A program made the translations under genes and the position numbers. Under the pieces are notes generated by a model. The model was not told where the DNA came from. It ran no database searches and saw nothing but the letters and a program-made list of their open reading frames with translations. This document shows, in pieces, positions 24,856 to 30,680 of a stretch of DNA of 53,612 nt. The first letter of the stretch is position 1. Every line of letters starts with the position of its first letter. This DNA is from Candidatus Rokuibacteriota bacterium (GTDB taxonomy: Bacteria; JAUVQV01; DATDCY01): the NCBI GenBank assembly GCA_031406795.1, contig JANOHV010000023.1, positions 1-53,612 on the forward strand, written 5' to 3'.

Positions 24856-25805
24856 CCGCGGGAGTCGCATCCGGCGCGGAAGTCCGCATACTCGCGCCGG
24901 CGAAGATCAACCTCGGCCTCGCGGTTCTCGGGCCCCGCGCCGACGGTTACCACGAGTTGCGCACCATCTTCCAGGCCGTCTCGCTGTGCGACCGCATCGC
25001 GCTGCGGCGAGCGCGCGGCGGGGTGCGGCTGAACTGCCCGGCGCTGCACGGACTCGGCGAGAACAACCTTGCCCACCGCGCCGCGCGGCTGTTTCTCGAA
25101 AAAACGGGTCTGCCCGGCGGGGTCAGCATCGATCTGGAGAAACGCATTCCCACGGGGGGCGGGCTCGGCGGGGGCAGCAGCGATGCCGCGGCCGTTCTGC
25201 TCGGATGCTGCCGTCTCTTCGGGATTCGTCCCGATCCGGCGACCCTCCTCGGCTGGGCGGCAGCGCTCGGCTCCGATGTCCCTTTCTTCCTTGAGGGCGG
25301 TTCCGCAATCGGGAGCGGCCGGGGTGAGATTCTCGAGCGTCTGGCGCCCTTTCCCGGCACCGTGGTGGCGCTTCTCCAGCTGGCGGGCCCTGGTTTGTCA
25401 ACGGCCGCCGTCTTCCGGAAACTCCGGGCGCCGGCGCACCGCCCCGCCGTTCATGCCGCGGATCGGACCCGAGGGAGATTGACAGCGGGCACCCGGAAAC
25501 TTACCATCCTCCTCGCGTGTTGGCAGGGGGGAGACCTGCGGCGCCTCGCGAGGCTGCTCTTCAACGATCTCGAGACGCCGGCATTCGCCTTGGCCCCCGA
25601 ACTCGCTGACGTGAAAGAGAGGCTGACCGCCGCCGGGGCGGAAGGGGCGCTCCTGAGCGGCAGCGGGTCGAGCGTCTTCGGGTTGTTCGGCGGCGATCGC
25701 GCAGCCGAACGGGCCCGCGGACGGCTGCGGGGAAGCATCCCGGGGCGGCTCGTCAAGGTGCACTTCCTTCCGGCGCGTCGCCGATGGGGCGTCGTCAAGC
25801 GGTAA
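24852..25805 (+). CDS. ispE: 4-diphosphocytidyl-2-C-methyl-D-erythritol kinase
   Basis: APAKINL.L, R.DGYHEL.T, KRIP.GGGLGGGSSDAA, LGSDVPFF, LSGSGS. Confidence 0.95.
   Translation: MTAGVASGAEVRILAPAKINLGLAVLGPRADGYHELRTIFQAVSLCDRIALRRARGGVRLNCPALHGLGENNLAHRAARLFLEKTGLPGGVSIDLEKRIPTGGGLGGGSSDAAAVLLGCCRLFGIRPDPATLLGWAAALGSDVPFFLEGGSAIGSGRGEILERLAPFPGTVVALLQLAGPGLSTAAVFRKLRAPAHRPAVHAADRTRGRLTAGTRKLTILLACWQGGDLRRLARLLFNDLETPAFALAPELADVKERLTAAGAEGALLSGSGSSVFGLFGGDRAAERARGRLRGSIPGRLVKVHFLPARRRWGVVKR
25479..25507 (+). promoter_or_regulatory. Putative internal sigma70 promoter within ispE (for tRNA-Gln)
   Basis: TTGACA-17 nt-TACCAT. Confidence 0.55.
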
Positions 25806-25859
25806 GACACGGGTCTTTGGATCCCGCATTCGGAGGTTCGAATCCTCCCGCCCCAGCCA
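25785..25859 (+). tRNA. tRNA-Gln (anticodon TTG)
   Basis: Cloverleaf: acceptor TGGGGCG/CGCCCCA, anticodon loop CTTTGGA, T arm GGAGG-TTCGAAT-CCTCC, encoded CCA. Confidence 0.96.
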
Positions 25860-25959
25860 TCGCAGGCATCTGAGCCGATTTACTTCTTGACAGGCGTGTC
25901 CCGAAGTGGTGTTGTGTCTATAGGTTGACGCAAATCCATCGGGAAGGAGGTGAATCTGC

Positions 25960-26187
25960 ATGGAACGCACGGATCTGAAGAATGTTCTGGCTGGTTTCGG
26001 TCTCGCGGCACTTCTCGCGGGCGTCGCAGTGGTCGGGTGCTCGCAGCCGCAGAAGAGCTCGTGAACGGGCAAGAAAACCGGTGCCGGTGGCACTGGAACC
26101 CAGCAGCAGGCCCCAGCCCCCAGTTCCTGAAGCGGAACCAAAGGCGCCGGTGGCGCCGGAGGCTCCTGATCGGGCACCAAGAAGTAA
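25960..26187 (+). CDS. sbtA: SbtA-type (selenobiotic family) RiPP precursor with three selenocysteines: MERTDLKNVLAGFGLAALLAGVAVVGCSQPQKSSUTGKKTGAGGTGTQQQAPAPSSUSGTKGAGGAGGSUSGTKK
   Basis: SD AAGGAGG at 25944-25950, ATG 25960, in-frame TGA at 26062, 26128 and 26167, TAA 26185-26187; leader resembles the SbtA family (DLK..LAG.G.A.L.AG); adjacent to an SbtM-like rSAM gene. Confidence 0.88.
26078..26096 (+). promoter_or_regulatory. SECIS-like hairpin 1
   Basis: CCGGTGCC-GGT-GGCACTGG; loop begins 21 nt after TGA 26062-26064. Confidence 0.75.
26143..26157 (+). promoter_or_regulatory. SECIS-like hairpin 2
   Basis: GGCGCC-GGT-GGCGCC; loop begins 18 nt after TGA 26128-26130. Confidence 0.72.
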
Positions 26188-26206
26188 CCAGTGCGGTCTG
26201 CACTGG
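26188..26206 (+). promoter_or_regulatory. SECIS-like hairpin 3 (in 3' UTR)
   Basis: CCAGTGC-GGTCT-GCACTGG; loop begins 25 nt after TGA 26167-26169; resembles the E. coli fdhF SECIS apex GC-AGGUCU-GC. Confidence 0.78.
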
Positions 26207-26247
26207 AAGATGAGAGAAACCGACCCGGAAGCACGGAATAGCCGGGC

Positions 26248-26311
26248 ACTCCGAACTGGCGGAACCGGGGGCGCGCGAGCGTCCTCGAGGATGTCGGTTC
26301 GGAGTTTTTTT
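26248..26311 (+). terminator. Intrinsic terminator-like long hairpin after sbtA
   Basis: ACTCCGAACTGGC/GTCGGTTCGGAGT outer stem, inner CGGGGGCGC-GCGA-GCGTCCTCG hairpin, followed by a T run. Confidence 0.7.
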
Positions 26312-26317
26312 CTGAAG

Positions 26318-26346
26318 TTGACACCAGAGTCCGTCCGGACTAGGGT
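26318..26346 (+). promoter_or_regulatory. Putative sigma70 promoter for sbtM
   Basis: TTGACA-17 nt-TAGGGT, ending 9 nt before ATG 26356. Confidence 0.5.
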
Positions 26347-26355
26347 TCTCGCGTC

Positions 26356-27834
26356 ATGACTTCCCGGAATTCGTCCCTCCCTCCCGACTGCGCGGCCGAT
26401 CTCGCGCGCGTGCGGGAGGCCGCAGAAGCGGTGGCCGCGGCGCAGACGCCGGCCCGCTGGGCGGAAGGCGACCGGCACGAGGTCAATCCGACGCTGCAGG
26501 CGCTCGCTCTGGCCTGGCGGAATCTCGGAGCCTACGCCGGACCCGACGCGCTCGCCGAAAGCGCCGCCCCGCCGGCTCCGGGCCAGGAGACGCTGCTGAT
26601 CTGGCGCTCCCCCGGGAGCGGGCGCGTGGTCGCCCGCGCGGCCGGCGCAGACGATCTGCTCGCTCTCAAGCTCGTGGTGGAGGGCATCGACCTGGACGCG
26701 GCCGCGGCCGCCGGGGCGCTCTCCCGGGGGGTCATCGAGAGCGTGCTCGCCCGCGCGGCCGACGGCGGAGTGCTCCTGGCGCCGCGCCCGCTCATCCGTC
26801 GCGGGGAGGATTTCCCCCGGGGCGAGCTGGTCGACGAGTCCTTCTTCAGCGTCACCGGGTTCACCCTGCAGTGGCACCTGACGCAAGCCTGCGATCTGCA
26901 CTGCCGCCACTGCTATGACCGCAGCGCGCGTTCGGCCGTCCCGTTGGCGGCCGCCCTGGGCGTACTCGACGACCTGCGGGACTTCTGCCGGCAGAGACGG
27001 GTGAGCGGGTCCGTCTCGCTGAGCGGCGGCAACCCGCTGCTGCACCCGGACTTCACCGAGATCTACCGGGCCGCCGCCGCGCGCGATTTCGGCCTGTGCA
27101 TCCTCGGCAACCCGGCGCCGCGCGCCCGGATCGAGGAGTTGATCGAAATCCGCCGGCCCGGTTTCTACCAGGTCAGTCTCGAAGGCCTGCCGGAGCACAA
27201 CGACTGGGTGCGCGGGGCCGGACACTTCGAGCGGACCCTGAAATTCCTGCGGGAGCTCAGGGAGCTGGAGGTCTCGAGCATGGTCATGCTCACGCTGACC
27301 GAAAGCAACATCGATCAGGTGCTGCCCCTGACGCGTCGGTTGCGCGGGCTCGTCGACGATTTTCACTTCAACCGCCTGGCCATGGTCGGGGAGGGTGCGA
27401 ACCTGCGCCTCCCCACCCGCGAACGCTATGCCCGGTTTCTCGAGGAATACCTCGCGGCGGCGGAGCGCGACCCGGCGCTGGGCCTCAAGGACAACATGAT
27501 CAACATCCTGCGGCGCGAGCGCGGCGAGCCCCCCTTCGGCGGCTGCACCGGCTTCGGGTGCGGCGCGGCATTCAATTTCCTCGCCGTGCTGCCCGACGGC
27601 GAGGCGCACGCCTGCCGGAAGTTCCCTTCGCCGGTCGGCAACGTGGTTCGTGAGGGCATCGCCGCGGTCTACGATGGCGCGGCCGCGCAGGCCTACCGCG
27701 GCGGCTGCGCCGCCTGCCGCGACTGCGCGATCCGCCCGGTCTGCGGCGGCTGCCTCGCCGTCGCGCACGGCTTCGGCCTCGATCCGCTGCGCGAGCGCGA
27801 CCCGCTCTGTTTTCGCGACCGTGACGCTCGTTGA
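26356..27834 (+). CDS. sbtM: SbtM-type thio(seleno)oxazole RiPP maturase, radical SAM/SPASM
   Basis: LQWHLTQACDLHCRHCYDR (CX3CX2C), SGGNPLLHP, GGCTGFGCGAAFNF...ACRKF, CAACRDC...VCGGC SPASM; N-terminal extension with LLALKLVVEG. Confidence 0.88.
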   Translation: MTSRNSSLPPDCAADLARVREAAEAVAAAQTPARWAEGDRHEVNPTLQALALAWRNLGAYAGPDALAESAAPPAPGQETLLIWRSPGSGRVVARAAGADDLLALKLVVEGIDLDAAAAAGALSRGVIESVLARAADGGVLLAPRPLIRRGEDFPRGELVDESFFSVTGFTLQWHLTQACDLHCRHCYDRSARSAVPLAAALGVLDDLRDFCRQRRVSGSVSLSGGNPLLHPDFTEIYRAAAARDFGLCILGNPAPRARIEELIEIRRPGFYQVSLEGLPEHNDWVRGAGHFERTLKFLRELRELEVSSMVMLTLTESNIDQVLPLTRRLRGLVDDFHFNRLAMVGEGANLRLPTRERYARFLEEYLAAAERDPALGLKDNMINILRRERGEPPFGGCTGFGCGAAFNFLAVLPDGEAHACRKFPSPVGNVVREGIAAVYDGAAAQAYRGGCAACRDCAIRPVCGGCLAVAHGFGLDPLRERDPLCFRDRDAR

Positions 27835-27940
27835 AAGGACCCGCCTGCCGCGTTGCCCTTCTGACCAACCTCTCCGCGACCGGACCAACCGCGATTAACA
27901 CTACAGCGAATCTTTCCTGTGGTACCTCAGACCGTTATTT

Positions 27941-28025
27941 TTCGTAGGGAGAGGGTTTATCCCCTCCCGCCCGTTTGCGGTGAACTGTCCTCAACTCGGG
28001 CGGGGACGAACCCCGCCCCTACGAA
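27941..28025. repeat. GTAG-type REP doublet (REPIN-like)
   Basis: GTAGGGAGAGGGTTTATCCCCTCCCG (27944-27969) and inverted CGGGCGGGGACGAACCCCGCCCCTAC (27997-28022); outer TTCGTAGGG/CCCTACGAA pair. Confidence 0.7.
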
Positions 28026-28117
28026 CCGTTGTGCGTTTACCACCATATTCTCAAGGTGTTGTTCACAAAGGTTCGTCGTAGTGTTAAGCACTATTCATAC
28101 CAGGGCGCAGCGGGAAG

Positions 28118-30680
<2,563 letters not shown>

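Follow-up and report, generated by a model that had tools for sequence, protein, structure and literature searches.

The SbtA/SbtM system, in which a small selenocysteine (Sec, U) peptide is paired with a radical S-adenosylmethionine (SAM) maturase carrying a SPASM domain, was reportedly predicted by Haft and Basu in 2011, and its enzyme SbtM is said to have been studied by Lewis et al. in 2021. Here we analyze a locus of this type in a stretch of DNA of 53,612 nucleotides (nt), hereafter the window (contig JANOHV010000023.1 of assembly GCA_031406795.1, Candidatus Rokuibacteriota bacterium), where a short gene, sbtA, passes through three in-frame UGA codons ahead of the maturase gene, sbtM.

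In vitro, SbtM removes four hydrogens and forms a thio(seleno)oxazole, and the product still reacts with iodoacetamide (PMC9204691, PMC11002830); the substrate motif in print is Gly-Cys/Sec, in a short peptide from another organism (PMC9204691). A 2026 selenoproteome review lists the SbtA model TIGR04081 as "Selenobacteriocin", with the motif SGUG and 2 Sec (PMC13188914). Prokaryotic selenoproteins are given at most 2-3 Sec in a 2026 review. Two further groups of RiPPs (peptides made by the ribosome and modified after translation) are close enough to be compared. In bufferins, the peptide BufA is accompanied by an MNIO enzyme, BufB, and a partner, BufC; these peptides have signal peptides of the general secretion pathway, carry 5-thiooxazoles and act in copper buffering (PMC11626156). 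DAG-RiPPs such as DybA, lipobox-signal RiPPs reported in 2026, were mined among MNIO-associated precursors only (PMC13056109). For SbtA, our literature searches found no characterized natural product and no function described in print, in agreement with an earlier first-pass annotation of this DNA, made from the letters alone, which knew of no characterized product or function for an all-Sec variant with three cores.

The sbtA frame comprises 75 codons and opens nine bases behind an AAGGAGG Shine-Dalgarno motif that is kept in a sister species (genome G001); coordinates are collected in Table 1. Read with TGA as Sec, it gives the product MERTDLKNVLAGFGLAALLAGVAVVGCSQPQKSSUTGKKTGAGGTGTQQQAPAPSSUSGTKGAGGAGGSUSGTKK, in which U occupies positions 35, 57 and 70, within the cores SSUTG, SSUSG and GSUSG. 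With translation table 11 the same frame ends after 34 codons, and the gene is therefore missing from the list of open reading frames (ORFs) of at least 40 residues, which shows here only overlapping frames of the kind typical of GC-rich DNA. The first-pass annotation had described the ribosome-binding site, the start, the three TGAs, the stop, the 75-residue product and its three cores, and had remarked that the gene was absent from the ORF track; all of this was reproduced by our translation. The maturase gene starts 169 nt past the sbtA stop. We conclude that sbtA is a real hidden gene, encoding a small peptide with three selenocysteines beside a maturase gene.

Both genes belong to the SbtA/SbtM family, as had been proposed from the leader and the neighbouring radical SAM enzyme, since both score above the curated cut-offs. 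Residues 1-26 of SbtA match positions 1-26 of the 27 in TIGR04081 with 35.2 bits (cut-off 30.5); a Pfam scan of the 75-residue peptide gave no match. The ORF at 26356-27834 matches the SbtM model TIGR04082 over its full length (660.7 bits, cut-off 350), and Pfam finds in it the Radical_SAM (53.3 bits, cut-off 29.5) and SPASM (27.6 bits, cut-off 21.5) domains. The Geobacter-type assignment made earlier needs correction: the nearest named relatives of SbtM come from metagenome-assembled genomes (MAGs) labelled Candidatus Rokubacteria or Methylomirabilia. At E up to 1e-40, SbtM is matched by 3170 of 8000 proteins scored, whose names place them in Nitrospirota, Desulfobacterota, Methylomirabilia and other groups.

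Homologues were sampled from 80 SbtM loci of different species, the best 80 of 573 confirmed loci (599 pattern hits), by reading the DNA with TGA as U and searching it with an iterated leader profile. SbtA-like ORFs adjoin SbtM in 71 of these 80 loci, giving 73 peptides, which share with the present SbtA the core type [S/G][S/G]-U/C-[S/T/G]-G. Cys and Sec interchange at the aligned cores across the 73 peptides, and an all-Cys paralogue occurs in the window's own genome. The peptides carry no Sec core in 11 cases, one in 12, two in 20, three in 25, four in 4 and five in 1, where the core pattern may take in a few true stop codons as cores. Three is thus the modal number (25/73); exactly three Sec and no Cys core are found in 24 of the 73, and three or more Sec, again without a Cys core, in 29. 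The first-pass annotation had set the all-Sec peptide with three cores apart as a variant, but these counts give it no special standing: the present locus is an ordinary, typical member of the known SbtA/SbtM family, and its three Sec are not unusual.

The richest peptide in this sample is encoded in a MAG labelled Desulfobulbia (L085:5288-5653, plus strand), with five in-frame UGA cores, and four loci (L033, L043, L086 and L100) encode homologues with four. In the alignment described below, each UGA of L085, L033 and L086 has its own hairpin; from each of L043 and L100 the alignment omits one of four UGAs, a codon with another UGA close by.

The window's own genome contains three proteins that match the SbtA model, namely SbtA and two paralogues, for one SbtM. 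The first paralogue (contig C271:5909-6124, minus strand; locus L110:1495-1716, minus strand) is an all-Cys peptide of 74 residues with four Cys cores and the lipobox AAGC (TIGR04081, 44.6 bits); it is unlinked to sbtM and has an ortholog in G001 (L111). The second (contig C49; locus L114:1501-1803, plus strand) has 101 residues, an SbtA-type leader or signal peptide (TIGR04081, 40.7 bits) and one UGA, in an AAUSG core, followed by a tail of about 60 residues that faintly resembles DegQ in its PDZ region (E 0.0034). Both G001 (L115) and a further sister species (genome G003; L108) retain this protein, which from its sequence could be taken for a Sec-core "precursor" joined to a folded domain. 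The SbtA leader is kept in every paralogue.

In G001 itself, sbtA has 91% DNA identity to the window copy. All three TGAs are kept there, as are hairpins 2 and 3 and the position of the stop (TAA changed to TAG). The site has the order ispE - tRNA-Gln - sbtA - pyrG, without sbtM (L107, G001:C15:365907-369065; L026/L023). No sbtA lies within 3 kb of sbtM in that genome; the two are 412 kb apart, sbtM standing behind an engB-like GTPase gene. Linkage of the two genes is therefore not obligatory.

In bacterial SECIS (selenocysteine insertion sequence) elements, for example that of fdhF, an in-frame hairpin stands just 3' of the UGA, and its apical loop has a G some 20-30 nt from that codon. In sbtA a hairpin with a G in its loop folds 3' of all three UGAs, which places three SECIS-like elements within 145 nt; the first encodes part of a T-G-A-G-G-T-G spacer. 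The comparison set for these hairpins consisted of the 73 homologue peptides, the window copy, its two paralogues and four loci from G001 and G003, with 155 UGA and 72 Cys-codon core sites in all. At 139 of the 155 UGA sites vs 31 of the 72 Cys-codon sites, a hairpin with 5 bp or more stood at the right distance, and G was among the first two loop bases at 129/155 vs 23/72. Mean fold energy was -12.4 kcal/mol at UGA sites and -9.2 kcal/mol at Cys-codon sites (rank test p ~9e-9, a value that overstates significance because the core sites are related).

Of 146 distinct UGA windows, 136 entered the alignment; the ten omitted either had a second UGA of their own peptide at a distance of 6-18 nt or were a probable true stop. 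The consensus reads UGA-AGC-GG, a spacer, and GGUGC-AGGU-GGCACC. Pairing holds in 84.4% of the cells of its 7-bp helix, six of whose seven pairs have changes on both sides. Cells changed on both sides number 190, compared with 72.3 +/- 8.3 after shuffling (0 of 500 shuffles reach 190), and the covariation score is 0.362, against 0.166 for shuffled alignments and 0.053-0.138 with slid partners. The stem variants GGUGC/GCACC, GACGC/GCGUC and GGUAC/GUACC alter the encoded residues yet preserve pairing, which points to selection on the RNA; the G-A-G-G-T-type spacer recurs after each core because the pairing of the hairpin is kept. Comparison across the family thus shows a conserved downstream hairpin, the predicted recoding signal, at each UGA of sbtA.

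The machinery for Sec insertion is largely in place. The window's own assembly contains selA (541 bits, at a contig end) and selD (351 bits; contig C234:8400-9320, minus strand), both above cut-off, and a tRNA-Sec with 69.2 bits, compared with a gathering score of 47. SelD is itself likely a selenoprotein, since its gene has one in-frame TGA. The partial exception is selB: a match at the very start of another contig covers model positions 158-580 only, with 130.5 bits, below the cut-off of 242.25, and the N-terminal third of the gene was not assembled. The simplest reading is a selA-selB operon split by the assembly.

The three TGAs are also unchanged in contigs from two DNA runs and from two RNA runs, the latter two metatranscriptomes of different studies; the DNA runs are not independent, because they are possibly the source of the window itself. 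One RNA contig of 213 nt covers 25964-26176 with 1 mismatch and a word depth of 1832, that of an sbtM-like contig in the same run being 13. The other covers 25950-26246 with 7 mismatches, of which two change residues (K38N and S71T) and the rest are silent or untranslated. Lack of RNA-contig cover elsewhere, for example over most of sbtM, is not evidence of silence. One DNA contig joint that skips 25857-26630 (run X1) was disregarded, as its shorter side has only 24 letters, below the reliability mark.

Besides the sub-threshold selB, several results weigh against reading sbtA as a three-Sec gene, and some of them would suit a true stop at UGA 26062, the gene then encoding a 34-residue mini-lipoprotein or a leader only, with the downstream cores untranslated, as table 11 reads the frame. 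Taken alone, the fold energies are not exceptional: for the 60-nt stretch of hairpin 1, z is +0.10 and 107 of 200 shuffles are at least as stable, and for hairpins 2 and 3 (z -1.67 and -1.88) the values are unremarkable in GC-rich DNA. Rfam, searched with 25700-26500 at E up to 10, returned only the tRNA above threshold and no SECIS family. RNAalifold predicted 0 pairs on the 136-row alignment, so the hairpin was named by hand and the pairs were counted on it; the helix was thus derived from the sequences used to test it, which favours it, and two of five helix measures fall within the range of shuffling (both-side-changed pairs, 173/500; further pair types, 198/500). The sbtA copy of G001 has a 2-nt insertion in the CAG run between cores 1 and 2 that, if real, would remove cores 2 and 3 there; the cause is an error in assembly or else recent decay. 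Finally, since contig depth cannot rank genes and DNA can occur in RNA libraries, the RNA contigs only hint at high expression of sbtA.

Nevertheless, we regard a stop at UGA 26062 as very improbable. The copy in G001 keeps the frame after this codon and shares its three TGAs, its hairpins and the place of its stop with the window copy; homologues have Cys in place of U at the same cores; the hairpins are enriched at UGA over Cys sites and show compensatory changes; and a leader lacking any core would offer the adjacent maturase no substrate residue. In the reading that we prefer, sbtA would be translated through its three UGAs, each recoded by its own hairpin 15-21 nt downstream, into a 75-residue precursor.

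The putative next step is taken by SbtM. Its CxxxCxxC motif (C179, C183 and C186) is invariant in all 55 aligned homologues, and so are C397, C402, C420, C454, C457, C463, C466 and C485. The structure model (pLDDT 90, pTM 0.88) finds its fold matches among RiPP maturases of the radical SAM/SPASM type, namely SkfB (E 1.1e-13), SuiB (TM score 0.53), 5why/5wgg, PqqE and anSME; of these, a search by sequence only retrieves SkfB alone. In the model, three strands and then three helices span residues 48-136, and their order may be that of a peptide-recognition domain, of an N-terminal peptide-binding-like kind. SbtM would oxidize each Ser-Sec to a 5-selenooxazole with the free selenol kept, a loss of 4 Da per site, as family membership and in-vitro work on one other SbtM suggest.

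Reaction at Ser-Cys/Sec motifs had been presented in the first-pass annotation as the reported activity; the published motif is Gly-Cys/Sec (PMC9204691), and Ser-Sec is the form of the present peptide, in which Ser precedes every Sec. That the known activity concerns a Gly-Cys/Sec peptide of another organism, and here Ser-Sec three times over, tells against conversion. It would fit a peptide whose Sec residues are inserted but not, or not all, turned into selenooxazoles, leaving a small exported lipoprotein rich in selenols that serves in redox reactions or as a selenium carrier. The distance of 412 kb between the two genes in G001 would fit this too, as would the need for a single SbtM to act on three different SbtA paralogues. 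On the other hand, in the 73 homologues encoded next to SbtM, U or C stands after S as well as after G, sbtA adjoins sbtM in 71 of the 80 other loci, and the leader that defines the family persists in each paralogue, and we consider unconverted Sec unlikely. That the window encodes a genuine three-Sec SbtA which is a substrate of SbtM seems to us, from the sequence comparisons, highly probable.

The SbtA leader has a charged start containing K/R, a hydrophobic run and a V-V-G-C end. By this pattern it could well be a lipoprotein signal peptide, a proposition that we judge about even. The modified peptide would then leave the cell by the general secretion pathway, Lgt would attach a lipid to Cys27 and LspA would cleave the peptide, yielding a 49-residue lipid-anchored peptide with three selenooxazoles; the odds that we give to this export and lipidation are similarly balanced. 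The genome contains lgt and lspA, the latter split at contig ends. A lipobox-like leader end is found in 45 of the 73 homologues; the other 28, which count against this step, mostly end Ala-rich and by eye resemble signal peptidase I sites, and lipidation is therefore not constant in the family. No conserved third gene was found at distances up to 3 kb from SbtM in 81 loci: the widespread ORF clusters other than SbtM itself overlap it in another frame, and the top independent cluster occurs in 8 loci. With a signal-peptide leader, the lack of an accompanying protease or transporter gene at sbtA-sbtM would be accounted for.

Once in the cell envelope, the N,Se heterocycles might bind soft metal ions under anoxic conditions, a speculative role modelled on bufferins that we hold to be possible but doubtful; by this analogy we infer that SbtA may function as a lipid-anchored selenium metal-binder. 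The name "Selenobacteriocin" given to TIGR04081 in the 2026 review (PMC13188914) stands for another fate, in which the mature product is released as an antimicrobial, as are many RiPPs that are antibiotics, and is not anchored in the membrane. We find this unlikely, if slightly less so than unconverted Sec: no immunity, transporter or protease gene is conserved, other ORF families reaching at most 8 of the 81 loci; the leader has the look of a general signal peptide, and 45 of the 73 homologues have a lipobox; the core is of low complexity and rich in Gly, Ser and Lys; and the nearest chemistry with a known role, that of the thiooxazole bufferins, serves metal buffering.

The flanks of sbtA-sbtM are housekeeping genes, with ispE and then tRNA-Gln upstream and pyrG downstream. 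Between sbtA and sbtM lies a long hairpin (26248-26305; -49.2 kcal/mol, z -3.38, a stability reached by 1 of 200 shuffles) with seven U behind it, whose outer stem is kept through a compensatory change in G001; a simple terminator scan missed it because of its loop limit of 8. From its sequence we read it as an intrinsic terminator or attenuator, which probably keeps the precursor transcript well above that of the maturase. A scan for sigma-70 promoters found none upstream of sbtA. Its sole match, at 28118-28146 just upstream of pyrG, is near consensus (TTGACA, 17 nt, GATAAT). An ORF of 91 residues at 27919-28194 was considered as a third gene and rejected: it has no family, it holds the promoter-like site of pyrG, and homologous loci have no conserved downstream gene. 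The intergenic region between sbtM and pyrG contains, at 27875-28048, GC-rich palindromic motifs (e.g., 27998-28022). This segment occurs once in the window, has no Rfam match above threshold and draws many foreign metagenome contigs (depth 54-121, where its neighbours have about 9), and it probably represents a repeat element common to different organisms.

Table 1. Features of the sbtA-sbtM region, in window coordinates.
Feature	Positions	Strand	Basis
tRNA-Gln (UUG)	25785..25859	+	ARAGORN; Rfam tRNA 58.6 bits; order ispE - tRNA-Gln - sbtA kept in G001
Shine-Dalgarno AAGGAGG	25944..25950	+	sequence; conserved in G001
sbtA, ATG 25960 to TAA 26185-26187 (stop included), Sec at codons 35, 57 and 70	25960..26187	+	translation; TIGR04081; G001 ortholog; RNA and DNA contigs
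leader, read as lipoprotein-type signal peptide (residues 1-26), lipobox V-V-G-C, Cys27 codon 26038-26040	25960..26040	+	sequence pattern
UGA 1, Sec35, core SSUTG	26062..26064	+	sequence, translation
SECIS-like hairpin 1, 8-bp stem, GGU loop, start 16 nt past the U of UGA 1	26078..26096	+	fold; homologue alignment
UGA 2, Sec57, core SSUSG	26128..26130	+	sequence, translation
SECIS-like hairpin 2, 6-bp stem, GGU loop, start 15 nt past UGA 2	26143..26157	+	fold; homologue alignment; identical in G001
UGA 3, Sec70, core GSUSG	26167..26169	+	sequence, translation
SECIS-like hairpin 3, 7-bp stem, GGUCU loop, start 21 nt past UGA 3, directly after the stop codon	26188..26206	+	fold; homologue alignment; identical in G001
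long hairpin (26248-26305) and seven U (26306-26312), read as terminator or attenuator	26248..26312	+	fold; compensatory change in G001
sbtM, radical SAM/SPASM maturase, 492 residues	26356..27834	+	TIGR04082; Pfam; invariant Cys; structure model

The locus, from a Rokubacteria-like lineage, adds one correctly decoded gene to the SbtA family, which is routinely overlooked by gene callers, and its main value is as a correction of annotation; the question of what the SbtA product does belongs to the family and not to this locus. Multi-Sec SbtA genes with one hairpin per UGA represent the densest use of selenocysteine observed in bacteria, homologues reaching 4 and 5 Sec compared with the 2-3 of the 2026 review. 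The signal-peptide reading gives a concrete idea of the destination of the product and of its possible role.

Compared with SECIS elements of the fdhF type, sbtA has its three elements packed closely together, the last behind the stop codon, and its hairpins dictate the spacers of the peptide. With bufferins SbtA shares its ribosomal origin, an N-terminal signal for general secretion, Cys-derived 5-thiooxazoles with a free chalcogen as the corresponding chemistry, and the lack of a dedicated exporter. The two differ in the enzyme (O2-dependent and multinuclear iron vs radical SAM), in the element (sulfur vs selenium) and in the peptide (a small-protein fold vs the low-complexity SbtA core), and copper buffering, shown for bufferins, is for SbtA only an analogy (PMC11626156). 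The likeness is functional only, and sbtA-sbtM is not a bufferin system, because its sole conserved neighbour is a radical SAM enzyme and not an MNIO (DUF692)/DUF2063 pair. DAG-RiPPs likewise have a lipobox leader and are predicted to be modified in the cytoplasm before Lgt and LspA act, the lipidation of SbtA being predicted from its sequence pattern; the text of the paper describing them has 0 mentions of "radical SAM" or of words beginning with "selen" (PMC13056109). As a tentative proposal, to which we give well under even chances, SbtA peptides would be no classical antibiotics freed from a leader but poly-selenooxazoles made without O2 by a radical SAM enzyme, exported by general secretion and mostly lipid-anchored, a selenium counterpart in anaerobes of bufferins and lipoprotein-RiPP hybrids, with Gly/Ala-rich spacers dictated by RNA hairpins instead of by the function of the peptide, and with one SbtM serving several unlinked precursors, among them a protein with a PDZ-like tail.

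The closest comparison is with the SbtA/SbtM system as described. The present locus agrees with it in passing both models, in its two-gene cassette, in UGAs that lie in cores of small residues and are followed by a hairpin, and in a SPASM radical SAM enzyme with invariant cluster Cys. Descriptions in print give "at least two SeCys" and a GGUG motif (PMC9204691) or 2 Sec (PMC13188914), whereas the present copy has three, each after Ser; hosts in print are Geobacter or Desulfobacteria, while the present host is Rokubacteria/Methylomirabilia-like; and the present genome has two additional SbtA paralogues for its one SbtM. None of these differences in Sec count, host or paralogues is unusual within the sampled family.

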